From Armatimonadota bacterium (GTDB lineage Bacteria; Armatimonadota; Fimbriimonadia; Fimbriimonadales; GBS-DC), in NCBI GenBank assembly GCA_037444405.1, contig JBBIML010000012.1, positions 32,001-96,000 of the forward strand: 64,000 nt of DNA, read 5' to 3'. This document shows, one piece after another, positions 17,078-29,600 of this stretch. The notes beneath the pieces are model-generated. The model was not told where the DNA came from and did not search any database. It saw nothing but the letters and a program-made list of their open reading frames with translations. The first letter of the stretch is position 1. Each line of letters opens with the position of its first letter. The position numbers and the translations under genes are program-made.

Positions 17078-18378
17078 AACGCCTGCAGTTCGCCCTTTGC
17101 CCAGTTGTACCACCATGGCATGCCGTGCGGAGCGAGCATGACATGGATCTGCTGGAGGCGCAGCCACCAGTGCTGCGCCTCCGTATACAAACCGCACTGA
17201 CACAGCACCCGAATCCAGATGAGCGCTTTGTTGATGCGCTGCTGAACGCCCTGCTCTTCAGGGTCCGCCAGTGAGGGGTTATCGGTGAGCAGTTGGAGCG
17301 CCTGCTCGCTCTGACCCAGATTGGCCAGCACCAGCGCGTCCGAGAGAAGGATGTTGGGGTCACCATCGCGCCATGGGTCGCTTTTGCGTCGGGCGATAGT
17401 GTGGGTCTCCACTGCCTCGTGGCGATGGCGTGAGAAGCTCAGGTACTCCGCACTGTTGCGCCAGAACCATGCGGCATGTTCAGGTGCGCACTGTTCCGCC
17501 GCGCAAAGCCAGCGCCGAAGGATGGTCACCCCTTCCAGCGGAATCATGCGCGGGTTGCATTCCGCTGCGCCTTTCGCCTGCGCATGCACGATATAGAACC
17601 AGTGGGGGCGCAGGGGTTCCGATCGGGGAATCAGGCGCAGGGCACGCTGAACGGATAGCTGCGCCTCATGCACCCGCGCCTGCTCCACCAGATAGCGGCA
17701 GTGATAGGCAAAGGCATCGATCAGCAGGCTCTTCGGGGCGCGGTTCACGCTCACCATCTGCCACAGACGCCCCTGAACACAGCGATAGAGCAGGTCGGTC
17801 ATCGCGGGGTCAATCGAGAGCCGGTCGGTTTTGACCGCTTCCAGCAGTTCTTCCATCTCGGCGGCGGACGCCACCTCGAAGGGCAACCAGGTCAGCACGC
17901 CGCGCCCGTTTTGAAGCGCATGATGCTCCGCCTCGCTCGCGCCCAGCACGGTGCACAGGCGTCCTAACTGCTCGTCGGAGGGCCAGCTCTCGGAACGCTC
18001 CCAGCGACTGACCGTGCTGACCGTCACGCCCACATGCAGGGCGACCTGTTCGAGTGTCCAGCCGCGCCGTCCCCGCAGCGCTCGCAACAGCTCGCCCCCA
18101 ATCGGGGCAGCGCCTGACGGCGAAGGCATACCTTCTCTTACCCCCACTGCCATCGGGGTCGCGCGAGGGGCATCCAGAAGTTGCCACGCCTGCGCACACT
18201 CGGTCTCAGTAGCCTGCAACGCGGTCAACACCGCCCGCAGCTCATAGACGCGCGGAGTAGTCGCTCCCGCTTCCCAGCGGCTCAGGGTGGAAGCATTCAC
18301 TCTGGCAGCACGCGCCAGCTGACGCAGCGACAGTCCCCGTGAGGCACGCATGCGACGCAAATGCTCTGCCAAAAACAC
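17041..18378 (-). CDS. Double-HTH (XRE) / TPR-like regulator (paralog 3)
   Basis: HTH1 LRRMRASRGLSLRQLARAARVNASTLSRWE, DAPRA, HTH2 LRGRRGWTLEQVALHVGVTVSTVSRWE; GTG 18378 follows GAGGT and a TGGTATAAT -10. Confidence 0.8.
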   Translation of the reverse strand: MFLAEHLRRMRASRGLSLRQLARAARVNASTLSRWEAGATTPRVYELRAVLTALQATETECAQAWQLLDAPRATPMAVGVREGMPSPSGAAPIGGELLRALRGRRGWTLEQVALHVGVTVSTVSRWERSESWPSDEQLGRLCTVLGASEAEHHALQNGRGVLTWLPFEVASAAEMEELLEAVKTDRLSIDPAMTDLLYRCVQGRLWQMVSVNRAPKSLLIDAFAYHCRYLVEQARVHEAQLSVQRALRLIPRSEPLRPHWFYIVHAQAKGAAECNPRMIPLEGVTILRRWLCAAEQCAPEHAAWFWRNSAEYLSFSRHRHEAVETHTIARRKSDPWRDGDPNILLSDALVLANLGQSEQALQLLTDNPSLADPEEQGVQQRINKALIWIRVLCQCGLYTEAQHWWLRLQQIHVMLAPHGMPWWYNWAKGELQAFSAPAAEVEQHR

Positions 18379-18484
18379 ACCCCAACACCTCATCGACATT
18401 ATACCACAGGTCAGTTCAAAAATGCTCTTGAGAAACCCCTGATGCAGGGAACCATCGGTAAACGCGCAGGGTATAATAGATGTG

Positions 18485-18889
18485 ATGCCGTTGCACAGCA
18501 GGCACTGGTGGCGCATCGCGCTCTGGATGCTGATGGGCTGGCTGGGACTGGCACCGCTCAGCTGGCTGGCTGTGCATTCGTGCGACTGCTACCGACCTGC
18601 TCGCACCCACGCATGCTGTGCGTCATCCCCTGCAACGGGGCAGGCAGTCCCTGCGCCCCATCCGCGCAGCGATTGCCCGCATTGCCAGCTCTGTCAGGCA
18701 AGCCATCCGAACCCTGCCGTGCTGACGGGCGGGACGAATCTGCCGGACCAGAGCTTCACTCTACTGATGCCCCCGTTGCCGATGCAGGTGGTGGTACAAC
18801 CCACCCGCACCCCGCTTTATCACCCACCGATTCAACCCCTCATTCAGACCGCTTTCGAATGCTGGGCGCCGCGCGCCCCTCCTGTGTGA
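18485..18889 (+). CDS. DUF2946-like leader protein with Cys motifs and C-terminal RAPP arrest motif
   Basis: Hydrophobic N-terminal segment; HSCDC, HACC, DCPHCQLC; Pro-rich spacer; ends PRAPPV*; TATAAT 7 nt before the ATG. Confidence 0.75.
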   Translation: MPLHSRHWWRIALWMLMGWLGLAPLSWLAVHSCDCYRPARTHACCASSPATGQAVPAPHPRSDCPHCQLCQASHPNPAVLTGGTNLPDQSFTLLMPPLPMQVVVQPTRTPLYHPPIQPLIQTAFECWAPRAPPV

Positions 18890-18991
18890 GCATATAATCG
18901 CATCTGTCATCACCGCATCCTGCGGCGATGCGATTCGTTCACCTGAGTTTCACGCTCGTGAGACGAGCGCAGACAATCATCACACAGGAGG
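18878..18991 (+). promoter_or_regulatory. Anti-SD/SD long-range stem controlling the next gene
   Basis: CCTCCTGTGTGA (18878-18889) is the exact reverse complement of TCACACAGGAGG (18980-18991); two internal hairpins lie between them. Confidence 0.75.
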
Positions 18992-19000
18992 AGATGAGCC

Positions 19001-19555
19001 ATGCAAAAAGCGATCTATGGGGCGCTGCTGAGCGCCGGAATGGTGCTGGTTTTAACGGGTCTGATGACCGCTCAACCGAAGCAGGAGCTTCGCACCGTCG
19101 CTATCCGGGTTGGCGGGCTGCACTGCGAGGGCTGTGTGGAGCCTGTGGTGAAGGGGCTTCAGCAGGTGCGGGGCGTGCAGTCAGCCCAGCTCGATTTTAA
19201 GACGGCGACGGCGATTGTGCGCTACGACGAGGCGCAGGTTGCCCTCTCGCAGGTCGTGCTGGCGTTGCCCAAAATCCCGCACGCGATGGGACCCAGCTCC
19301 CGAATGCGCTATTCGGGTCAGCTCGCGCTGAACCTGCAGAAAGGTGACGCGCAGAAAGTCGCGCGGGCTTTGCAGAAGGTCGCCGGCGTGCAGAAGGTCA
19401 CGGTCAACAAAAATACCCTGCTGATTCAGTTCAAGCCGAACGCTTCGGTGCGCTATGCGCAGCTGGAGCAGGCACTGAAAAAGGCAGGGGGCACGCTGGC
19501 ACCCGTGCAGGCAGCTGGCGAGCAACACCAGCACAACCATGAGCATCATCATTAA
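19001..19555 (+). CDS. Exported heavy-metal-associated (HMA) domain protein with His-rich tail
   Basis: Signal peptide; GLHCEGC metal motif; second degenerate HMA-like fold; HQHNHEHHH end. Confidence 0.8.
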   Translation: MQKAIYGALLSAGMVLVLTGLMTAQPKQELRTVAIRVGGLHCEGCVEPVVKGLQQVRGVQSAQLDFKTATAIVRYDEAQVALSQVVLALPKIPHAMGPSSRMRYSGQLALNLQKGDAQKVARALQKVAGVQKVTVNKNTLLIQFKPNASVRYAQLEQALKKAGGTLAPVQAAGEQHQHNHEHHH

Positions 19556-19614: not shown

Positions 19615-21726
19615 ATGGGGCACTCACACCCTCACCATCATCGGGTTCATACGCCAGCGCCGCTGCCTGACCATCGTGAGCATCGCGAGTCGGCTCATGA
19701 CCAGCATGCGGGGCACACCATCGCGATGTTCCGCAATCGCTTCATCGTCTGCTCCGTGCTGACCATTCCGATTCTCATCTGGAGCGAGAGCATTCAGCAG
19801 TGGCTGGGCTTTCGGGCGCCGCGCTTTACAGGCAGCGATGCCGTTGTGCCCCTGTTGAGTGCGGCGGTCTTTCTCTATGGTGGAACCCCCTTTTTGCAGG
19901 GCGCGGTGCGCGAATGGCGTGCCCGCATACCGGGCATGATGACGCTGATCGCGCTGGCAATCAGCGTGGCGTTCGGGTACAGCCTCGCCACCACGCTGGG
20001 GCTGCGGGGCATGCCCTTCTACTGGGAGCTGGCGACCCTGATCGATGTGATGTTGCTGGGACACTGGCTGGAGATGGCAGCAATCGGCAGGGCGTCGCAG
20101 GCGCTGGAGCATCTGGTCGCACTGTTGCCCCCGCAGGCGCATCTGCTGCGCGGGGAGCAGGTGGTGGATGTACCGCTGGAGGCGGTGCAGGTGGGCGACC
20201 GCGTGCTGGTGCGCACGGGCGAGCAGGTGCCCGTGGACGGTGTGGTGCTGGAGGGGGTTTCCAGCGTGAACGAGGCGTTTCTGACGGGCGAATCGCGCCC
20301 TGTGCCCAAACAGCCAGGCGATGAGGTCGTGGCTGGCTCCATCAATCTGGAGGGGCGGCTGATTGTGGAGGCGCGGCGCGTGGGCACCGCCACCACACTC
20401 CACCAGCTAATGCGACTGGTAGAAGAGGCGCAGCACACACGCAGTCGCTTCCAGGTGCTGGGCGATCGGCTCGCCTTCTGGCTCACCGTGGTCGCGCTGC
20501 TGATGGCAGCGGGAGCAGGCATCGCGTGGCATCTCAGCGGTGTCGACTGGCAGTTCACGCTCGCCCGCGCTGTTACCGTGCTGGTTATCGCCTGCCCGCA
20601 CGCGCTGGGGCTGGCAATCCCGCTCATTCTGGTTCAAGCAACGGGGCGCGCCGCCCGCAACGGCATTCTGATTCGCAATCGTGAAGCCATCGAGCGCGCC
20701 CGCACCATTCAGGTGGTCGCGTTCGATAAGACGGGCACGCTCACGGAAGGGCGGTTCGCTGTTACGGGCATCTGGGTTGCAGGGATGGAAGAAACGACTG
20801 CCCTGCAAATCGCAGCGACGCTGGAGCAAAACACGAGCCATCCGCTGGCGCAGGCTCTGCTCGAAGCAGCCCAGGAGCGCGGCATCCTGCCCAGCAGGCT
20901 GGACGAGTTCCAAACCGCGCCCGGCAAGGGTGTGGAAGGGCGTATTGACGGTGCGCTTTACCGACTGGGACGCCCCGAATGGCTCGCGGAACTCGGCATT
21001 GAACAAACGCCAGCCCTTCAGACAGCTCTGGCACATGCCGAACAGCACGGCGAAACAACCATCGTGCTGTTCAACACGAACGGGGCGCAGGCAGCGTTCA
21101 CGCTCGCGGACCGCGTTCGCTCGGGTGCAAAAGAGGTTGTTGCGGCGCTCCATGCGATGGGCATTCAGGTCGTGATGATCACAGGCGACGCCGAAGCAGT
21201 GGCACGCACTGTCGCCGAGCAACTTCAGGTCGATACTTACTACGCACGGGTGCTGCCCGATCAGAAGGCGAACATTGTGCGCCAGATTCGCGAGGGGGGT
21301 CAGCGGGTTGCCTTTGTGGGCGATGGCATCAACGATGCACCTGCCCTGCTCGCCGCCGATATCGGCTTCGCCATCGGTGCGGGCACGAATGTCGCTATCG
21401 AATCCGCTGATGTGGTGCTGGTTGAGAACGACCCGCGCGATGTGGTCTTCTTCCTGCGACTGGCACGACTGGGCTACACCAAAATGGTGCAGAACCTGTT
21501 CTGGGCAACGGGCTACAACCTGATTGCCCTGCCCCTGGCGGCGGGTGTGGCGGCGCGCTGGGGGCTACTGCTCTCACCCGCAGTGGGCGCACTGCTGATG
21601 AGCCTGTCGACGGTGATTGTCGCGATAAACGCGCTCCTGCTCCGCCGCGCAAGGCTCGATAACGGCGAAGCCACTCCACATCAGCATAGCCATACAACTC
21701 ACGCTACAGGAGGGAAACAGCTATGA
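19615..21726 (+). CDS. P1B-type heavy-metal ATPase, CopB-like (copper)
   Basis: His-rich N-terminus; TGES, CPHALGLA, DKTGTLT, HP, GDGINDAPAL, YN and MSLST motifs. Confidence 0.92.
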   Translation: MGHSHPHHHRVHTPAPLPDHREHRESAHDQHAGHTIAMFRNRFIVCSVLTIPILIWSESIQQWLGFRAPRFTGSDAVVPLLSAAVFLYGGTPFLQGAVREWRARIPGMMTLIALAISVAFGYSLATTLGLRGMPFYWELATLIDVMLLGHWLEMAAIGRASQALEHLVALLPPQAHLLRGEQVVDVPLEAVQVGDRVLVRTGEQVPVDGVVLEGVSSVNEAFLTGESRPVPKQPGDEVVAGSINLEGRLIVEARRVGTATTLHQLMRLVEEAQHTRSRFQVLGDRLAFWLTVVALLMAAGAGIAWHLSGVDWQFTLARAVTVLVIACPHALGLAIPLILVQATGRAARNGILIRNREAIERARTIQVVAFDKTGTLTEGRFAVTGIWVAGMEETTALQIAATLEQNTSHPLAQALLEAAQERGILPSRLDEFQTAPGKGVEGRIDGALYRLGRPEWLAELGIEQTPALQTALAHAEQHGETTIVLFNTNGAQAAFTLADRVRSGAKEVVAALHAMGIQVVMITGDAEAVARTVAEQLQVDTYYARVLPDQKANIVRQIREGGQRVAFVGDGINDAPALLAADIGFAIGAGTNVAIESADVVLVENDPRDVVFFLRLARLGYTKMVQNLFWATGYNLIALPLAAGVAARWGLLLSPAVGALLMSLSTVIVAINALLLRRARLDNGEATPHQHSHTTHATGGKQL

Positions 21727-23444
21727 AAAAATGGTTCCCGATTCTCAGCAGCCTTATTCTGCTGGCAGGACTCACATGGGGCACATGGTGGGTTGTGCAG
21801 ACAAAGCGCCCGCCGGGTGCGATGACCCCCTTGGAGGCGCAGGGGATGGATATGACGGTCATGAAACCCCCGCGCGGCGCGTTCCCTGTAAGCACGGAAG
21901 AGGTGCAACCGCGCCCGTTCCTGCCCTCCGTCGCCTATCCCGCCACCTTCCGCGCCTACAACGAGGAGGTTCTCCGCGCCCGCATCACGGGCAAATTGAT
22001 GGGGACCCGTGTCTATCCCGGCGACCGCGTGCAACCGGGTCAGTTGCTGGCGCTGATTGAGCCAGAGGAGTATCAGGCGCTGGCACAGGGCGCTGAAGGT
22101 GGGCTGCAGATGGCACTGGCAGAGCAGAGGGAAGCCCTCTCGATGGTGCAGGAAGCCAACGCGGCGCTTCAGGCGGCGAAAGCGCGCTTCCAGCAAGCAC
22201 AGGCGGAAGTGGACGAAGCCCAGCAGATGCTCCGCGCCGCCGGCGCCGAGTTGCGAACGGCTCAGGCGCAACTGGAACAGATGGAAACCGAGATTCGGGC
22301 GGCGCGCGCAGAAGTGGAGTTCTGGCAGGCGGAATCGGAGCGCCAGAACGCCCTGTTGCAGAAAGGCTTCGTGTCGAAACGCGACGCCCAGGCAGCGGAG
22401 ACACGCCTCAAGCAAGCGCGTGAGAGCCTGCAGGCAGCACAGGCAGCCTACCGTTCGCAACAGTCGCGGGTTGAGCAGTTGCAGGCGAATCGCGAGGCGA
22501 TGCGCGCCCGTGTGCAACGCGCCCAATCAGCACTCGATGCCGCTGAGCGTGAAGTTCAATCCGCAACGGCTCGCCAGCAAGCCGCCCAGGCGCGGCTCCA
22601 GCGCGCGCAAGCACAAATCCAAGCCGAGCAGGGCAAAACCCGCGCCGCTCAGCTGCAGGTTGCCTACACCCGCATCGTTGCGCTCAACCCGGGCGTCATC
22701 ACCGAACGCCTCACTGAGCCGGGCACCCTGGTTCAACCCGGCACGCCCATCTTCCGTCTGCAGAACACTACCCGGATTCGGGTTCAGGCGAAGGTCGCCG
22801 AACAGGACGCCGCCCGAATCCGCGTTGGATACCCCGTCTGGATTCGGCGCTACGCCGAGCCGAACCGTGTCTACACGGCGCGCGTGAGCGCCATCTTCCG
22901 CGAAGCGGAACCGAACACCCGCACAATGATTGTGGAAGCCATCCTGCCCAACCCCGACGGGCGCCTCAGCGTGGGTGAATACGCCGAAATGCGGATCGGG
23001 CTGCGTGGCGATTCCCGTCGCGCGCTCACCGTGCCCCAGCGCGCTATCCAGCACGACGAACATCAGCGCCCCTATGTGTGGGTGGTGGAAAAAGTGCATC
23101 GCCACACCAATCAGCCCACCACCTACTACTGCACGATGCACCCGCAGATAGAGCGAAACGAACCCGGAATCTGCCCCATCTGCAAGATGGAGCTGGTTCC
23201 CAAAGAGCAACCTGCCGACTATATCGCACGCCGACGCTATGTGAAAGTGGGACTCTCCGACGGCGAGCGCACCGAGATTCTGGACGGACTCAAGGCGGGC
23301 GACCAGGTGATTGTGTTTGGCTATGCGAGCCTGGTAGAGGGCGATCCCGTGTTCCCCACCGAATGGACCGCACGGGGACCCCGCCAGATTAACCCGCCCC
23401 AGTTCCAGCCATCTACCCCTTCACACGGAGGGCATGGACATTGA
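21723..23444 (+). CDS. RND efflux periplasmic adaptor with heavy-metal-binding domain
   Basis: Membrane anchor, long coiled coil, barrel-sandwich motifs, YYCTMHPQI...PGICPICKMELVP. Confidence 0.88.
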   Translation: MKKWFPILSSLILLAGLTWGTWWVVQTKRPPGAMTPLEAQGMDMTVMKPPRGAFPVSTEEVQPRPFLPSVAYPATFRAYNEEVLRARITGKLMGTRVYPGDRVQPGQLLALIEPEEYQALAQGAEGGLQMALAEQREALSMVQEANAALQAAKARFQQAQAEVDEAQQMLRAAGAELRTAQAQLEQMETEIRAARAEVEFWQAESERQNALLQKGFVSKRDAQAAETRLKQARESLQAAQAAYRSQQSRVEQLQANREAMRARVQRAQSALDAAEREVQSATARQQAAQARLQRAQAQIQAEQGKTRAAQLQVAYTRIVALNPGVITERLTEPGTLVQPGTPIFRLQNTTRIRVQAKVAEQDAARIRVGYPVWIRRYAEPNRVYTARVSAIFREAEPNTRTMIVEAILPNPDGRLSVGEYAEMRIGLRGDSRRALTVPQRAIQHDEHQRPYVWVVEKVHRHTNQPTTYYCTMHPQIERNEPGICPICKMELVPKEQPADYIARRRYVKVGLSDGERTEILDGLKAGDQVIVFGYASLVEGDPVFPTEWTARGPRQINPPQFQPSTPSHGGHGH

Positions 23445-23470
23445 GAGGACACAATCGCTCTACGGGGAGC

Positions 23471-23908
23471 CTATTGCGTGTCGAGCTGGTTCAGAAACTG
23501 CTGCACGCTCACGACCTGAATGCCGAACTCTGCCATTTTCTGAATCAGCTCGAGGTCGCGCTTGAGATCGTCATCGCGCGTAACAAGGTACTCCGCGCCA
23601 CCCTTGATGGCGGTCTCCAGAAACATGTTATCGTGCGGGTCGCGGCAGAGGTTTATTTCGCCTTGAATTTCCACCCACACGGCTCGCGCTTTGAGCAGGT
23701 TCATCAGTTCTTGCACAAGGTCTGGATGATAAGACATTCTTCGCATCAATCGTGGGCGCATCAGAACCTGCCAAAGTTCGTCCAGAAGCGGCTGGCTCAC
23801 CACCACGAGGAACTGCGCTTTCCGAAAGGCTTCCATAACCAGAGCGGGCGCGCCGTGAGGGTTCAGTACCGCCGATACCCAGACATTCGTATCGATCACG
23901 GCACGCAT
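23471..23908 (-). CDS. PIN-domain putative toxin
   Basis: MRAVIDTNVWVSA, CRDPHDNMFLETA, LVTRDDDL. Confidence 0.88.
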   Translation of the reverse strand: MRAVIDTNVWVSAVLNPHGAPALVMEAFRKAQFLVVVSQPLLDELWQVLMRPRLMRRMSYHPDLVQELMNLLKARAVWVEIQGEINLCRDPHDNMFLETAIKGGAEYLVTRDDDLKRDLELIQKMAEFGIQVVSVQQFLNQLDTQ

Positions 23909-24156
23909 CGCTGGCGATATTCTTCGTACGCCGCGGTAATCTCGGCTTCGATGTCTTCGGGAGGCTGGTACTGGGAAGCTCGACGGAACGCCTGGAGCAA
24001 CTGCTCCATGCGCTTCTGCCAGTCTTCCTCGGTAAGTTGCAGCCAGCGGCTAACGATCTCGCGAGCCAGCGCTTCAGGGCTGACCTGCCGACACTCTGCA
24101 AGGTACTGCAGGCGCTGCCAATCGGTCTCGCTCAAATCGATGTTCAAGGTTGCCAT
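23896..24156 (-). CDS. Putative antitoxin (ribbon-helix-helix-like)
   Basis: 86-aa acidic ORF directly upstream of and overlapping the PIN gene. Confidence 0.7.
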   Translation of the reverse strand: MATLNIDLSETDWQRLQYLAECRQVSPEALAREIVSRWLQLTEEDWQKRMEQLLQAFRRASQYQPPEDIEAEITAAYEEYRQRCVP

Positions 24157-24186
24157 CCCACCCCATTATACCACAGGAGGGCTGTC

Positions 24187-27100
24187 ATGAGTCAGCGCGG
24201 GTTCAATCTGATCGAGTGGAGTGTAAAGCATCCGTCGGCGGTGCTGGCGTTTTATACCGCTGTGATCGTGCTGGCAATCTGGGCGGTGGTCGCCTATCTA
24301 CCGCGCCGGATGATGCCCTACATCGAAAGCCCCCAGATCGGCATCGTGACGCGCATGCCCGGCTTGAGCGCCGAAGATATGGAGACCTACTACACCAAGC
24401 CCATCGAGCAGCGTATGACCGCGATCGCAGGCGTGCGCTACATCCGCAGCACAACCCAGGACGGCTACAGCATCGTGGTGCTGGAGTTCCCCTACGGCAC
24501 GGATATGCAGAAAAAACTTACCGAGGTTCAGGCGCTTATGACCATTACGCAGGACGATCTGCCGATGCAAGGCGCCAACGCCCAGCCCTCGTGGGTACTG
24601 CAGATTGACCCGCTGAACCTGCCCGTGCTGACCCTTGCCGTAACGGGCGACTCGCGCTGGACCCTCGCCCGCATGCGTGAAGTGCTGGAGAACGAGATTG
24701 CCGACCGCATCAAGCGCACCAGCGGTGACATCTACACCGTCTCGGTGTTCGGCGGCTACCGGCGCCAGATTCAGGTGATTGTGGACCGCAACAAACTCAC
24801 CGCCTACGGTCTTTCCATTCTGGATGTGCAACGCGCCGTCGATTCGTTCAACCTCGCCGCGCCTGCAGGACGACTCACAGCGGACGCCTACGAAGAGATT
24901 GTGCGTCTCGATACGCTCGCTCGCAACGCCCAGGAAGTGGCGAACTATCCCCTGAAAGCCGTCGGCGACCGTGTGGTATATATCCGCGATGTCGCCCGTG
25001 TGATTGATACCTACGACGAAAAACGCAGTGGCTACTTCCATCAGTGGCAACAGGGCGGCAAGTGGCAGGTGAATGAAGCCATCGCCGTCAATGTGCTACA
25101 GAACCCATGGGCAAGTTCCCCACGCGTGATTGAGGCGGTGATGAAGGAGCTCGAAGCCATCGAGCGCGACTACCCTGGCTTGAAGTTCCGTGTCGCCTAC
25201 AATAACGCCGAGTTTGTGGATGTCTTGTTGCGTAATCTCTGGGAAGAGCTGCTCGTGGCGGTACTGCTTGCAGGGCTGGTAGTGTGGCTCTTTCTGGGCG
25301 AATGGCGCATGACGCTGATTGCGCTCACGGCTATCCCGACCTCGATGGCGATGGCGATTCTCGCGCTGGTGCCGATGAACATGAGTCTCAACTCCAGCAC
25401 GCTGATCGGGCTGTTGTTCGGCATCGGGCGCCTGGTGGACGATGCGATTATTGACCTGCATGCGGTGCGCCGCCATATGCGCATGGGCAAAGACCCTGTG
25501 CAGGCAACCGTGGACGGCATCACGGAAGTGCGCCGCTCGGTGGCTGCCAGCACGCTGATGATAGTGATTGCGCTCACGCCCCTGCTATTTGCCGGGGGCA
25601 TCGTGGAGCAGATGTTCGTGGGGCTGGTGTGGCCGCTGATTTTCGGGCTGCTGGCGTCGTTTCTGGTCTCGATGACACTCACCGCGACGCTCGCGTCGCG
25701 CCTTCTGCATGGCATTTCCGATCAGCCGACGCGCATTGAGCGGTGGCTCATCCAACCGTTCCAGCGTGGGCTGGACAGGCTGGAGAACGGCTATACGCGT
25801 CTCATTCGCTGGCTCTTGCATCATCGGTTCGTAAATATGATGAGTATTCTGGCGACGCTGGCAGTGGGGTTCGGCTTCTATTACTTCATCGGCAGTGAGA
25901 TGATGCCGCTGGGTGATATTGGGCAAGCCTACCTGCGTCTGGAGATGCAGCCGGGCACTTCTTACGCCGCGACGGAACGCGCCGTGCGCCAGCTCCAGCA
26001 AATTATCCAGAAGTATCCTGAAATTCGCCATGTGTCGTGGGAGGTGGGCGCGGAGGGCGGTCCGGGCTACTACGAGGGCGCCTACTTCACAGGCTACGCC
26101 TCCATGCGCGAGAACACCGCGACCGCCATGATAACCCTCACCTCCAAAGACGAGCGCAGGCGCGACATCTGGCAGATTATCGACGCGATTCAGGCAGAGG
26201 CAACCGCCACCATCCCTGGTATCCGCCTGCTCCAGATTAAGGAGATGGGCGTGGATGTGATGGCGACCGCTGCCGCGCCCATCCAGATTCTCGTCTACGG
26301 ACCCGATTTTGAGCTGACCAGCCGCCTGGCAGAAGAGAGCCTGCGGATTGCGAAGGCGCAGGTCCCCGACCTGTTCCAGCCCGGCACCTCGTGGACGATG
26401 AATCGCCCCCTCTGGCGGTTGCGCATCGACCTGACCAAAGCGGCGCAGATGGGTTTCACACCCGAAGAGATTGCCCGTCAGGCGTTCTACGCGCTTAAAG
26501 GGGGCTATACTCAGCAGTTCTATCGCTTCCCGGAGCATGCGGACCGCCGCCAGACGACTATCCTCATCCGCTACGAAGAGTCGCAGCGCCTGCACCCTGC
26601 TGATCTGGAACAGTTGATGCTGGTGAACGCGCGCGGGGAGAGCGTGCCGCTGAAGGCGGTGGCGCGGGTGGAGTATACAGTTACGCCGACACTGATTGAG
26701 CGCGATGGGCTACGCCGCGTGGTCAGCCTGATGGGCTATTACCGCAAGGGCGACTATCAGCCACCGCGCCTTGATACAGATGGCGACGGTCAGGCGGATA
26801 CGGCTTTGTTTGACCTCCCGCATCCGCCACGCCCGTCGATGGATGTGGCGATGGATGTGATGATGAAAGCGATGGCGCAGGTCAATTGGCCCCCGCGCGA
26901 ATACGGCATGGAAGTACGCGGCGATATGACCCAGATGATGGATTCATTCCGGCGGATGATGATGGGCTTTCTGGTGGCGCTGCTGCTGATGTATCTAGTG
27001 CTGGTGGCGCAGTTTGGGGGCTTTTTGCAGCCGTTGCAGATGATTTTCAGCCTGCCGCTGGAACTGTCGGGCGTGTTTATCTTTCTGTGGCTGATGAAGC

Positions 27101-27501
27101 AAGCGTTCAGCACGGTGTCGTTGCTTGGCATTATCGTGCTGACGGGAATGGACATCACCGCCGCGATATTGATGATTGACCTGATTCTGGTGTTGCGGGC
27201 GCAGGGCATACCGCGCGATGAGGCGGTGGTGCAGGGTTGTGTGGACCGCTTACGCCCCATTCTGATGACGGTCATGGTCACCATCGCTGCGCTGGCGCCC
27301 GTCGCTTTCTTCCCGAAGATGGGCACCGACGCCTACCAGCCGCTGGCGACTGCGGTGATCGGCGGGCTGCTGATGGGCACAGTGCTGACCCTTATCGATA
27401 TCCCGATTATGCACACGCTGGTGGATGACCTGCTGCGCTGGCTGCGACGCGAGCGTCCCGAACCAGCCATCGGTTTACAAAATCCGCATGATGGGGTATA
27501 A
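24187..27501 (+). CDS. RND efflux permease (AcrB/CzcA family)
   Basis: About 1100 aa, PGLSAEDME, LVDDAII, RLRPILMT, QPLATAVIGGL; start ATG 24187 after AGGAGG. Confidence 0.92.
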   Translation: MSQRGFNLIEWSVKHPSAVLAFYTAVIVLAIWAVVAYLPRRMMPYIESPQIGIVTRMPGLSAEDMETYYTKPIEQRMTAIAGVRYIRSTTQDGYSIVVLEFPYGTDMQKKLTEVQALMTITQDDLPMQGANAQPSWVLQIDPLNLPVLTLAVTGDSRWTLARMREVLENEIADRIKRTSGDIYTVSVFGGYRRQIQVIVDRNKLTAYGLSILDVQRAVDSFNLAAPAGRLTADAYEEIVRLDTLARNAQEVANYPLKAVGDRVVYIRDVARVIDTYDEKRSGYFHQWQQGGKWQVNEAIAVNVLQNPWASSPRVIEAVMKELEAIERDYPGLKFRVAYNNAEFVDVLLRNLWEELLVAVLLAGLVVWLFLGEWRMTLIALTAIPTSMAMAILALVPMNMSLNSSTLIGLLFGIGRLVDDAIIDLHAVRRHMRMGKDPVQATVDGITEVRRSVAASTLMIVIALTPLLFAGGIVEQMFVGLVWPLIFGLLASFLVSMTLTATLASRLLHGISDQPTRIERWLIQPFQRGLDRLENGYTRLIRWLLHHRFVNMMSILATLAVGFGFYYFIGSEMMPLGDIGQAYLRLEMQPGTSYAATERAVRQLQQIIQKYPEIRHVSWEVGAEGGPGYYEGAYFTGYASMRENTATAMITLTSKDERRRDIWQIIDAIQAEATATIPGIRLLQIKEMGVDVMATAAAPIQILVYGPDFELTSRLAEESLRIAKAQVPDLFQPGTSWTMNRPLWRLRIDLTKAAQMGFTPEEIARQAFYALKGGYTQQFYRFPEHADRRQTTILIRYEESQRLHPADLEQLMLVNARGESVPLKAVARVEYTVTPTLIERDGLRRVVSLMGYYRKGDYQPPRLDTDGDGQADTALFDLPHPPRPSMDVAMDVMMKAMAQVNWPPREYGMEVRGDMTQMMDSFRRMMMGFLVALLLMYLVLVAQFGGFLQPLQMIFSLPLELSGVFIFLWLMKQAFSTVSLLGIIVLTGMDITAAILMIDLILVLRAQGIPRDEAVVQGCVDRLRPILMTVMVTIAALAPVAFFPKMGTDAYQPLATAVIGGLLMGTVLTLIDIPIMHTLVDDLLRWLRRERPEPAIGLQNPHDGV

Positions 27502-27510
27502 TCCGCACAG

Positions 27511-28317
27511 ATGCGCGGCGTGATCGAACCCAACCACATCTATCTGATGGACTGTCGTGAGGGCATGCGCCTGATGCCCGATGAGTGGGTAGATTTGATT
27601 GTTACGGACCCTCCCTTCGCCATAGATTTCCACGCCCGACGCGCCAACTACAATCGCACCCCAGAGCGCGTGCTGGAGGGCTACAACGAAATCCCTGCCG
27701 AAGAGTATTACGAGTTCACGCTCTCATGGATGCGCGAGGCATACCGTGTGTTGAAGCGTTCGGGCAGTATGTATGTGTTTTCGGGGTGGAACAACCTGCG
27801 CGATATCCTGAATGCGCTCGACGCGGTCGGTTTCGAGGTGGTGAATCACATCATCTGGAAGTATCAGTTCGGCGTCTACACGAAGCGGCGCTTTGTAACC
27901 TCGCATTATCACTGCCTGTATGTGTGTAAAGACGATGCGCTCCGCCGCTTTTACCCCGATGCGCGGTTTCCTGCGAGCGTTCGCGACGCCGCTGGGCGCA
28001 GCCAACGCTATGCCGATATGGAAGATGTGTGGATTATCCCCCGCGAATACTGGAACGGGGATGTCAAAACGCCCACCAAGTTGCCCGCCGCGCTGGTAGA
28101 GAAGATTCTGCAATACTCTTCGGTGGAAGGCGACCTCGTGCTGGACCCGTTTCTGGGTTCGGGGCAGGTGGCTGTGATTGCGAAGCAGATGGGACGGCGC
28201 TACCTGGGCTTTGAGATTGTGCCTGAATATTATCAGTTTGCGCTACGGCGGCTTGAAGAGGGTGTTTATCGAATCAAGGCTATCAAGGAAGAGAAAGAAG
28301 TAAATCTTTCTCTGTAA
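27511..28317 (+). CDS. Site-specific DNA amino-methyltransferase (N6-A/N4-C, beta-class motif order)
   Basis: Catalytic DPPF precedes SAM-binding LDPFLGSG; PTKLP and GFEI motifs. Confidence 0.88.
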   Translation: MRGVIEPNHIYLMDCREGMRLMPDEWVDLIVTDPPFAIDFHARRANYNRTPERVLEGYNEIPAEEYYEFTLSWMREAYRVLKRSGSMYVFSGWNNLRDILNALDAVGFEVVNHIIWKYQFGVYTKRRFVTSHYHCLYVCKDDALRRFYPDARFPASVRDAAGRSQRYADMEDVWIIPREYWNGDVKTPTKLPAALVEKILQYSSVEGDLVLDPFLGSGQVAVIAKQMGRRYLGFEIVPEYYQFALRRLEEGVYRIKAIKEEKEVNLSL

Positions 28318-28325
28318 AAAAAGCC

Positions 28326-29600
28326 TCAACACCCATCGCCGAAATTGAACAGCACCGTCAGCAGGTCGGCGTCGTCCACGATGCCGTCTTTATTGATGTC
28401 CTCGTGTCGAGTGGGTGGGCTGCCTGTGGTGCCAAACGCGAACAGTACGGCTAACAGGTCGGCGTCATCGATGCAGCCGTCGCCGTTGGTGTCGCCCGTG
28501 CGCCAGGTATCCAGCAGGAACGCCTCGTCAAACTGGGAAGTGGCATTATAGCCCCAGCCGACGATATAGCGTCCATCAGGCGAGATGGCGGTTGCCTCCC
28601 ACAGCTCGGAGCCGTTCGTCAGCAGGTCGGCATAGGTCAGCTCGAGGTTCTCCATTCCGCCCGTGATTGTCCAGCGAAACGCCCGCCACCGGTTGGCGCT
28701 ATTGCGCGACCTGCCCACGATAATCGCGCCGTCGGGGGAGATGTTGCGTGCTTCTGCTTCTCGTCCGCCCAGCGTGCCGAGGTCCTGCATGCCTGTCTCC
28801 GCCGTCCAACGGAAGGCACGCCACCGCCCGCTGCTGTCGCGCGACCTGCCAGCGACAACCTGTCCAGACGCGCTGGCGTCATGCGCCTCGCTCCATGTGC
28901 CGCCCAGCGTGCCGAGGTCCTGCATGCCTGTCTCCGCCGTCCAGAGAAAGGCGCGCCATTGGCTCGCGGCGTTGCGGGCGCGTCCCACGATGGCTGCACC
29001 GTCGGGCGAGATTGCGAAGGCTTCGCTGGAGGTGCCCCCCGCCAGCGTGCCCAGCTCCTCTATCTGCCCGTCGGGCAGCCAGCGCACCGCCCGCGACAGA
29101 CCCGCGCTGTTGGCAGACCAGCCGACAATGATAGAGCCGTCCGCCGAAATGTCCGCGGCGGCTGCCCACTGACCACCTGGCAGGGTACCGAGGTCCTCCA
29201 GCCCCGTCGCCTCGGTCCAGCGAAAGGCGCGCATCCGATCCTGACTGTCCACCGAGTATCCGACCATGACGGCGCCATCCCATGAGACTCCGTACGCCTC
29301 GGTGCTGACCCCGCCGAAGGTGCCAGGGTCACGCATACCCTCATCGCGCGTCCAGCGAAATGCCCGGAACAGGGGCGGAGCCGATACCCAGCCAACCACC
29401 ACTGAACCATCCGCCGAGACATCCCATGCCCCGCTCTGGAAACCGTCTGGCAAAACACCCAGCCAGAGCAGCTGCTGGGCGCTCGCCGGGAGTATGACCA
29501 GGCTTAAGCAGATTACAGTCGTCCCGTGTCGCAATCGGCTGAATGCCCCGGTTTTGCCGCAGCTCACCCGGGCAGTCCCCAGAATCCATGCACACCTCAT
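28326..29600 (-). CDS. Secreted HAF-repeat protein with dockerin-like tail
   Basis: Signal ending ASA-QQ; six RA(F/V)(R/L)W repeats plus a final one; DTWRTGDTNGDGCIDD...FGDGC. Confidence 0.85.
   Translation of the reverse strand: MRCAWILGTARVSCGKTGAFSRLRHGTTVICLSLVILPASAQQLLWLGVLPDGFQSGAWDVSADGSVVVGWVSAPPLFRAFRWTRDEGMRDPGTFGGVSTEAYGVSWDGAVMVGYSVDSQDRMRAFRWTEATGLEDLGTLPGGQWAAAADISADGSIIVGWSANSAGLSRAVRWLPDGQIEELGTLAGGTSSEAFAISPDGAAIVGRARNAASQWRAFLWTAETGMQDLGTLGGTWSEAHDASASGQVVAGRSRDSSGRWRAFRWTAETGMQDLGTLGGREAEARNISPDGAIIVGRSRNSANRWRAFRWTITGGMENLELTYADLLTNGSELWEATAISPDGRYIVGWGYNATSQFDEAFLLDTWRTGDTNGDGCIDDADLLAVLFAFGTTGSPPTRHEDINKDGIVDDADLLTVLFNFGDGC

Follow-up and report, generated by a model that had tools for sequence, protein, structure and literature searches.

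The leader gene and the RNA ahead of the HMA gene

We analysed a window of 64,000 nucleotides from an Armatimonadota bacterium of the order Fimbriimonadales (GenBank assembly GCA_037444405.1, contig JBBIML010000012.1, positions 32,001 to 96,000 of the forward strand; positions below are counted from the first letter of the window). Our subject is a small leader gene on the forward strand together with the RNA that separates it from the gene of an exported metal-binding protein with an HMA domain. Read directly from the sequence, the leader open reading frame (ORF; 18485-18889) begins at ATG 18485, or alternatively at GTG 18482, and runs to TGA 18887-18889. Counted from the ATG it encodes 134 residues plus stop, an assignment based on its translation and its homologues. 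The N-terminus has a basic stretch followed by hydrophobic residues 11-31 (18515-18577), a putative signal peptide or signal anchor. It was judged by hydrophobicity only, and the best 15-residue Kyte-Doolittle window of the leader family had a median of 2.0. Cysteines occupy positions 33, 35, 44 and 45 and recur in C64-P-H-C67-Q-L-C70; this cluster, C33-x-C35...C44-C45...C64-x-x-C67-x-x-C70 (18581-18694), is the putative sensing part, as indicated by its conservation and its fixed spacing to RAPP. The protein ends in R130-A-P-P-V134-stop, so that RAPP stands near the C-terminus of a small protein. The four RAPP codons (R130, A131, P132 and P133; 18872-18883), which encode a putative arrest motif, were invariant in a 21-row alignment. 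The first-pass annotation of this DNA had described a 134-aa leader with a hydrophobic N-terminus, a CPHCQLC cluster and a terminal RAPPV-stop, and all of these were found in the sequence and translation where it had placed them. An overlapping 178-aa ORF in another frame (18361-18897) was rejected, since the conserved family sits in the frame of the leader. Even at E <= 10 the leader was without a match in Pfam and NCBIfam, a word-index search of a large protein index found nothing, and genes of this family are at present annotated without a name.

The first gene under the proposed control (19001-19555, forward strand) encodes an exported HMA/HMA_2 metal-binding protein with a His-rich tail (Pfam HMA, 3.7e-17); its CopZ- and MerP-like NCBIfam matches were all under their cut-offs. 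It is followed on the same strand by the gene of a heavy-metal ATPase (19615-21726) with a His-rich N-terminus. This protein scored 580 bits against TIGR01511, the model for copper-translocating P-type ATPases (cut-off 397), and its translation contains a CPH motif, which make it a copper-type P1B ATPase; we take it to be of the CopB-like, P1B-3 type. Next comes the gene of a CusB-like membrane-fusion protein (HlyD_D23) with a heavy-metal-binding domain (21723-23444, forward strand), as assigned from its Pfam families.

The Pro-Pro-Val-stop codons of the leader, CCTCCTGTGTGA (18878-18889), are the exact 12-nt reverse complement of TCACACAGGAGG (18980-18991), the Shine-Dalgarno (SD) arm of the HMA gene, whose GGAGG (18987-18991) stands 9 nt ahead of ATG 19001. 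This complement between an anti-SD and an SD had been pointed out in the first-pass annotation and is present base for base. In the minimum-free-energy fold of 18860-19010 the two 12-mers were paired (-59.2 kcal/mol, z = -3.4), and none of 200 shuffled sequences did as well. As a chance control, we took ORFs of at least 100 aa with GGAGG-N5-10-ATG and determined, within the 160 nt upstream, the longest stretch perfectly complementary to the 14-nt SD region. Among the 752 GGAGG-led ORFs of the genome the longest complement was at most 9 nt in 750 and 12 nt in two, namely the window locus and a locus on contig C18, both of which are preceded by a RAPP leader. Because SD complements of more than 9 nt were restricted to these two RAPP-leader loci, we conclude that the complementarity is not due to chance.

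The second leader of this genome (G000; locus L022, contig C18:11854-12246, minus strand) has the tail RAPPDASRS-stop. Its anti-SD, CCTCCTGATGCG, pairs with CGCATCAGGAGG ahead of a single 305-aa pilin-like DUF1559 gene. The genome of the window accordingly has two candidate switches, one at the HMA locus and one ahead of this pilin-like gene.

A TATAAT box (18472-18477, forward strand) lies 7 nt ahead of the leader ATG, and its position is conserved in the family: 43 of 52 loci have a TAnnnT box, mostly GGTATAAT or GGTATACT, whose end is 5-9 nt ahead of an in-frame start codon. We also observed an excess of TATA[AC]T boxes 6-9 nt before the ATG or GTG of ORFs of at least 100 aa in the whole genome, with 54 at spacing 7 and about 10-25 at other spacings, which suggests that many mRNAs of this lineage are leaderless. 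Since the TATAAT is so near the start, and given the family pattern and the genome-wide excess, the leader mRNA is probably leaderless too. Scanning 18250-19100 for a full -35/-10 consensus sigma-70 promoter gave none, and no intrinsic terminator was found there. Four DNA sequencing runs, all from one subsurface-metagenome study, contain DNA of the window, and no RNA run is listed as containing it.

The leader family, its targets and the helix among relatives

A whole-genome search with the single leader protein as query found relatives in 11 of 41 related genomes. With a 9-row alignment, matches were obtained in 6 of 401 genomes sampled across the phylum Armatimonadota; four of these belong to the taxonomic family of the window and one to another family, and the sixth was a weak match without RAPP. 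A 21-row alignment (A2) matched all 29 genomes of the window's taxonomic family, with one to three copies in each. When 1.84 billion representative proteins were searched in full with HMMER, just 22 matched at E <= 0.001. Twenty of these were retrieved, of which 19 contained RAPP, at most 12 residues from the end in 18; the two outside the retrieved set were proteins of 1166 aa (P0014) and 449 aa (P0018). Among 79 CopB-type ATPase loci in other taxa, 74 had no such leader, and the remaining five are from Armatimonadota or Fimbriimonad genomes. Judged by these searches, the leader is a member of a new, small and lineage-specific protein family in Fimbriimonadales (Armatimonadota).

In the 21-row alignment, C35, C44, C45, C64 and R-A-P-P were invariant columns and C67 was nearly so, with a mean column identity of 24%. 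To avoid circularity, a hidden Markov model (HMM) was built without the RAPP columns, and RAPP was then scored in the ORFs that it detected. This model found 52 distinct ORFs in the retrieved loci, 51 of which had RAPP at most 12 residues before the stop. The sole exception was a weak 58-aa match, so that RAPP was kept in 51 of 51 credible homologues. In the codon analysis, which covered 52 family loci, RAPP was trailed by 1-8 residues in every one, and its codons varied: arginine was CGC in 28 and CGT in 24, alanine GCG in 30, GCC in 13, GCA in 5 and GCT in 4, the first proline CCT in 28, CCG in 20 and CCC in 4, and the second proline CCT in 35, CCC in 16 and CCA in 1. As all four codons vary synonymously while the amino acids stay constant, conservation acts on the protein and not merely on a CCUCC word in the RNA. 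The distance from the last CxxC to RAPP was also fixed, at 57-62 residues in 50 of the 52 loci and mostly at 59-60, over a linker of poorly conserved sequence. A length of about 60 residues would fit a chain that spans the ribosomal tunnel plus the translocon.

RAPP near a stop was rejected as stand-alone evidence. The genome has a G+C content of 62.5%, and 44 of its 23,385 six-frame ORFs of at least 60 aa carry RAPP near the stop; the motif is so common in six frames that by itself it proves nothing. Leaders of the CPAC type described below, and some of the HMA type, share a further conserved motif, (N)HSPP, some 8-10 residues ahead of RAPP (for example P0025, P0028, P0007 and L067); this motif may be part of a tunnel-interacting regulator module.

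A downstream gene with an SD could be assigned in 49 of the 52 family loci, and the RNA statistics below rest on these 49. Of these loci, 21 precede the gene of a pilin-like protein with N_methyl and DUF1559, 18 that of a secreted protein some 226 aa long that carries the motif GGCPAC, 9 that of an HMA protein and one that of a YHS/YtkA/TRASH protein. Leaders of the RAPPLC type (L024, L042, L055 and 15 others) precede the protein of about 226 aa, which has a signal peptide and carries GGCPAC on a short helix. It was predicted to form a 12-stranded barrel (pLDDT 76, pTM 0.72) most similar to the outer-membrane porins KdgM and NanC; no Pfam family matched it above cut-off. The genes downstream of the porin-type and YHS-type targets contained no metal-related Pfam families. 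Pilin-like and porin-like targets had not been linked to such leaders in the literature that we consulted for comparison.

In most loci the SD pairs with a segment that starts on the two proline codons, or a few bases away at most, and extends through the stop. The mean energy of the leader-SD duplex was -25.1 kcal/mol for a leader's own SD, -18.0 for SDs of the other target classes and -17.1 for SDs with shuffled flanks (16 nt upstream of the SD core, 50 shuffles per locus). The own duplex was better than the cross-class mean in 47 of 49 loci, and at most 2 of 50 shuffles were as good in 38 of 49. The sequences of the arms vary by locus, with TGTGTGA at the window, TGATGCG in the same-genome paralogue, and ATCGGA and TGTCGC elsewhere. 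One helix position read G:C, U:A, U:G and G:U across four related loci, and positions 5-13, beyond the CCUCC:GGAGG core, showed 2-4 Watson-Crick pair types each in the 31 of 49 loci that could be anchored on GGAGG. By these comparisons the predicted anti-SD:SD helix covaries between loci. We looked for loss of the complementarity in homologues that keep RAPP, which the first-pass annotation had named as a way to disprove its proposal, and found that relatives keep the helix with different arms.

RNAalifold, applied to 7 of the 9 HMA-type loci, recovered the long-range helix and two inner hairpins; L009 (49-nt spacer) and L014 (279-nt spacer) had been left out beforehand. In the window the first conserved hairpin is CATCACCGCA-TCC-TGCGGCGATG (18908-18930, forward strand), whose two sides correspond to alignment columns 55-67 and 71-82; 4 of its 10 pairs show changes in both partners. 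The second is CGCTCGT-GAG-ACGAGCG (18953-18969, forward strand). Two spacer hairpins had been proposed in the first-pass annotation. Both exist in the sequence and CGCTCGT-GAG-ACGAGCG is conserved, but the other, AATCGCATC/GATGCGATT, is not the conserved first hairpin among relatives. For the 21 pilin-type spacers RNAalifold gave no consensus structure, because the MAFFT alignment set their SD arms out of register, and anchor-based pairing was used for these loci instead.

We also modelled the effect of a stalled ribosome on the SD. With a footprint of -12 to +15 nt around the first proline codon, the modelled cost of opening the SD at the window locus fell from 8.7 to 1.1 kcal/mol. Over the 49 loci the median fell from 13.7 to 5.2 kcal/mol, with a drop of at least 3 in 44. 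A stalled ribosome would therefore, by this model, free the downstream start site.

A proposed arrest switch and its alternatives

From what is shown above, namely how the locus is built, its conservation across the family, the covariation of the helix, the fixed spacing and the modelled accessibility of the SD, we propose that the leader is a cis-acting nascent-chain switch in which stalling at RAPP would make the SD of the HMA gene accessible and the arrest would depend on metal. We put the probability of this reading at roughly 0.7; that the ribosome arrests, that the chain is exported, what the signal is and in which direction it acts are parts of it that we infer. A known precedent is CutF, in which a stall near the end of an exported leader with a Cys motif melts a structure that shields the SD of the next gene, and copper lengthens the stall (PMC9973294; bioRxiv 10.1101/2025.02.05.636593). 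In the window, the hydrophobic N-terminus would bring the nascent chain to the membrane. With the ribosome at R130-A-P-P133, the cysteine cluster, a fixed 60 or so residues behind, would probably just have emerged beyond the membrane. If the stall geometry of ApdA/ApdP applies (PMC10951233), P132 would occupy the P site and P133 the A site. With its first proline codon so placed, the 12-nt anti-SD would extend from the P site through the A site into the mRNA entry channel. The stalled ribosome would then cover 18878-18889 and break the long-range helix that buries the SD at 18980-18991. This would let 30S subunits initiate at the HMA gene, and translation of the ATPase and membrane-fusion genes would follow by coupling.

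The duration of the arrest would be set by the state of the exported cysteines. With CutF-like polarity, copper (or silver) on the thiols would block the folding or disulfide formation that would otherwise pull the chain free, so that metal would lengthen the stall and turn expression on. An arrest prolonged by metal is what we would expect here, because the cluster is an exporter. The first-pass annotation had already proposed that a ribosome stalled at RAPP masks the anti-SD and so switches on the HMA gene, and this idea gains support from the covariation of the helix, the synonymous conservation of RAPP and the modelled opening of the SD. Our best reading of the sequences is a real and strongly conserved arrest-leader/anti-SD switch that would join a RAPP-type arrest module with a CutF-type output.

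Several results weigh against this proposal. The shuffled flanks were not beaten in 11 of 49 loci, and the HMA-type locus with the 279-nt spacer had no helix for the start that was chosen. Within the HMA class the helix was 96% paired but 7 of 11 pairs never vary, so that covariation lies mostly between classes. The gain in SD opening was less than 3 kcal/mol in 5 of 49 loci, including the same-genome paralogue (9.4 to 7.7). In the fold with the RAPP region held single-stranded, which had been suggested as a check, the gain was smaller when just the segment 18860-19010 was used: with 18863-18893 blocked, the unpaired probability of the SD rose from 0.00 to no more than about 0.13-0.25, as a weaker alternative pairing took the place of the helix. 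Transcription could also bypass the switch if the conserved TATAAT directly after the leader stop (18893-18898) acts as an internal promoter. Furthermore, 39 of the 49 targets are porin-like barrels or pilin-like proteins without an evident metal link, which means that copper may not be the common signal of the family.

This last point bears on the alternative that the same arrest switch operates, with the cysteines reporting the redox state of the envelope or its export capacity (disulfide formation, Sec activity) and not metal. The 18 CPAC barrels and 21 DUF1559 pilin-like proteins have no recognised metal domain, RAPP/RGPP ORFs are reported ahead of DsbA and thioredoxin genes (PMC12992588), and the CutF model itself calls on disulfide formation (bioRxiv 10.1101/2025.02.05.636593). 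The targets in the window, by contrast, are an HMA protein, a copper-type P1B ATPase and a CusB-like protein with a metal-binding domain, and another member of the family heads a YHS/YtkA/TRASH protein; we regard a redox or export signal as unlikely, though it deserves the most weight among the alternatives. Plain translational coupling would do without sensing: any ribosome finishing the leader would open the helix, HMA protein and leader would be made in fixed proportion, and RAPP would add no more than a pause of constant length. Since the stop codon is part of the anti-SD, termination on the leader would likewise place a ribosome over it. Coupling leaves unexplained why RAPP is invariant with synonymous codons, why four cysteines are invariant and why the spacing of 57-62 residues is fixed over a poorly conserved linker, and we consider it improbable.

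Two further alternatives place the control in transcription, and we hold both to be somewhat less probable still. In CruR, a leader of Bordetella pertussis with the same RAPP motif, the stalled ribosome acts on Rho-dependent termination (PMC9426467). By analogy, a ribosome stalled in the window would mainly block such termination in the 111-nt spacer, and the helix would be secondary. The spacer has slightly more C than G (27 versus 21), and no intrinsic terminator was found. The spacer is, however, rich in structure, and the helix that closes it shows covariation with the SD, which masking of the SD predicts and a Rho loading site does not need; the polarity of CruR, by which metal turns expression off, is also ill-suited to an efflux cluster. 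In the other, the TATAAT at 18893-18898 drives most of the expression as an internal promoter, leaving the leader and helix to act on read-through transcripts only. This box, TATAGT in one case, stands right after the stop in 5 HMA-type loci from three genera. It is absent from three HMA-type loci of a fourth genus and from pilin-type loci, it has no -35 match, and conservation of the SD helix against an arm that the main transcript would lack is hard to explain. Arrest with release of the SD remains the reading that we prefer.

Relation to known leaders and neighbouring genes

As is proposed for the leader in the window, CutF of Rhodobacter capsulatus (cutFOG; DUF2946) is a small exported leader with a Cys motif that acts only in cis, its C-terminal proline stall unmasks an SD and its target serves copper detoxification (PMC9973294). 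The published rule for CutF-like proteins asks for less than 150 aa, PP in the last 15 residues, an N-terminal signal peptide and a same-strand downstream gene less than 1000 nt away (PMC9973294). The window leader has 134 aa, PP at 132-133 and a 111-nt spacer, with the signal peptide judged by hydrophobicity only, and falls within this rule. CutF stalls at an EF-P-sensitive PPP and has its anti-SD in a local intergenic stem-loop, whereas the window leader has a RAPP motif, and in other systems RAPP arrest is refractory to EF-P (PMC10951233; PMC12992588). Unlike in CutF, the Pro-Pro-Val-stop codons of the window leader double as the anti-SD, and the long-range helix that they form with the SD encloses a structured loop of about 90 nt.

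CruR (Bp2923; DUF2946) shares with the window leader a CxxC, RAPP a few residues before the stop, a conserved spacing between them and a copper-related operon (PMC9426467). The CxxC-RAPP spacing is 45 residues in CruR/DUF2946, within 1-2 (PMC9426467), and 57-62 in the window family. The outputs also differ: in CruR copper relieves the stall and Rho-dependent termination turns an importer off, whereas the window has conserved SD masking and an exporter as target. We found no hmmscan match of the leader to PF11162 (DUF2946) even at E <= 10, and a PF11162 search of the genome at E <= 1 gave two matches elsewhere and none at the leader. Profile comparison (hhalign) of the 21-row alignment with four DUF2946-type Armatimonadota proteins, a small reference alignment, gave a probability of 3% over 8 aligned columns that covered RAPP only. 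By PF11162, profile comparison and CxxC-RAPP spacing, the leader is not a member of DUF2946. One locus from another Armatimonadota family (L156) has a tandem pair of DUF2946-type ORFs that both contain CxLCxWH and a RAPP at the C-terminus, so classical DUF2946 leaders are also present in the phylum, outside the family of the window.

Peptides of the ApdA/ApdP/SecM type, with RAPP or RAGP, resemble the proposed switch in that they combine a C-terminal arrest module with an N-terminal localisation signal, of which the window leader has a putative one, and free an SD by stalling (PMC7897499, PMC10951233, PMC10987492). They monitor Sec/YidC components, whereas the window family has a cysteine cluster and its targets are metal efflux, porin-like barrel and pilin-like proteins. 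The general class to which the putatively secretory window leader would belong is that of the RAPP/RGPP ORFs of Fujiwara et al. (EMBO J 2025, PMC12992588), which are small and secretory, have a C-terminal RAPP and occur ahead of copper-related and other genes in many phyla. The main text of that report makes no mention of heavy metal, efflux, pilin, DUF1559, Armatimonad or Shine-Dalgarno, and we found no mention of HMA in the main text of PMC9973294. A literature search by title and abstract for an overlap of proline codons with an anti-SD gave nothing specific. The first-pass annotation had thought the target class undescribed for such leaders. This does not hold for RND systems, as CutF-like leaders ahead of RND efflux components (OEP, ACR_tran, HlyD_D23 and CusF) have already been reported (PMC9973294), and RAPP/RGPP ORFs before copper-related genes are described in PMC12992588.

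If the proposed switch is true, the principle of CutF and CruR, by which an exported nascent peptide senses outside the cytoplasm and reports by arrest, would not be bound to DUF2946 or to Proteobacteria. It would have originated in Armatimonadota, or changed there beyond recognition, and would control several unrelated envelope genes per genome. A bolder picture, which we rate as less likely than not, is that Fimbriimonadales have lineage-specific, leaderless 'molecular-ruler' RAPP leaders without detectable kinship to DUF2946. Two to three paralogues per genome would each gate another envelope gene (copper-efflux cluster, KdgM-like CPAC barrel or DUF1559 pseudopilin), with Pro-Pro codons serving as both arrest motif and anti-SD. 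Together they might form a nascent-chain regulon for the thiol or metal state of the envelope that replaces classical copper-sensing transcription factors. The 49 loci, with one arrest motif, different covarying anti-SD arms and a fixed ruler of 57-62 residues, make up a natural test set for the extent to which a stalled ribosome unwinds mRNA and for the coupling by chain length of the translocon to the peptidyl-transferase centre.

The first-pass annotation had seen no CsoR-, CueR- or ArsR-type gene by the cluster and suggested that the leader might be its main sensor. A search of this 98.9%-complete genome gave no match to CsoR, and none to CueR that exceeded its cut-off, a result that concerns the absence of matches only. 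It is no more than compatible with the leader as a principal copper sensor, and an XRE-type regulator gene does adjoin the leader. That divergent gene (17041 to about 18396, reverse strand) has, by domain scan, two XRE-type helix-turn-helix domains and a C-terminal part of about 290 residues without a family match. Among the loci searched it adjoins the leader only in the genus of the window (G000 and G002), and we rejected it as a conserved partner.

The gene of the RND transporter (ACR_tran; 24187-27501, forward strand), whose likely start is ATG 24187, lies farther downstream. Between it and the membrane-fusion gene, on the opposite strand, are a PIN_3-domain gene (23471-23908) and an 86-aa ORF that overlaps it (23896-24156), a VapBC-like pair that splits the efflux cluster. 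As this pair intervenes before the RND gene, the cluster is not a single uninterrupted operon, which corrects the first-pass description of a transporter operon. A 249-aa ORF (23441-24190) was rejected as a gene, having no family match and lying antisense to the PIN-domain gene. Directly after the RND gene there is an N6/N4 DNA methylase gene, and then, on the opposite strand, a gene for a dockerin-bearing protein (27511-28317 and 28326-29600, respectively).

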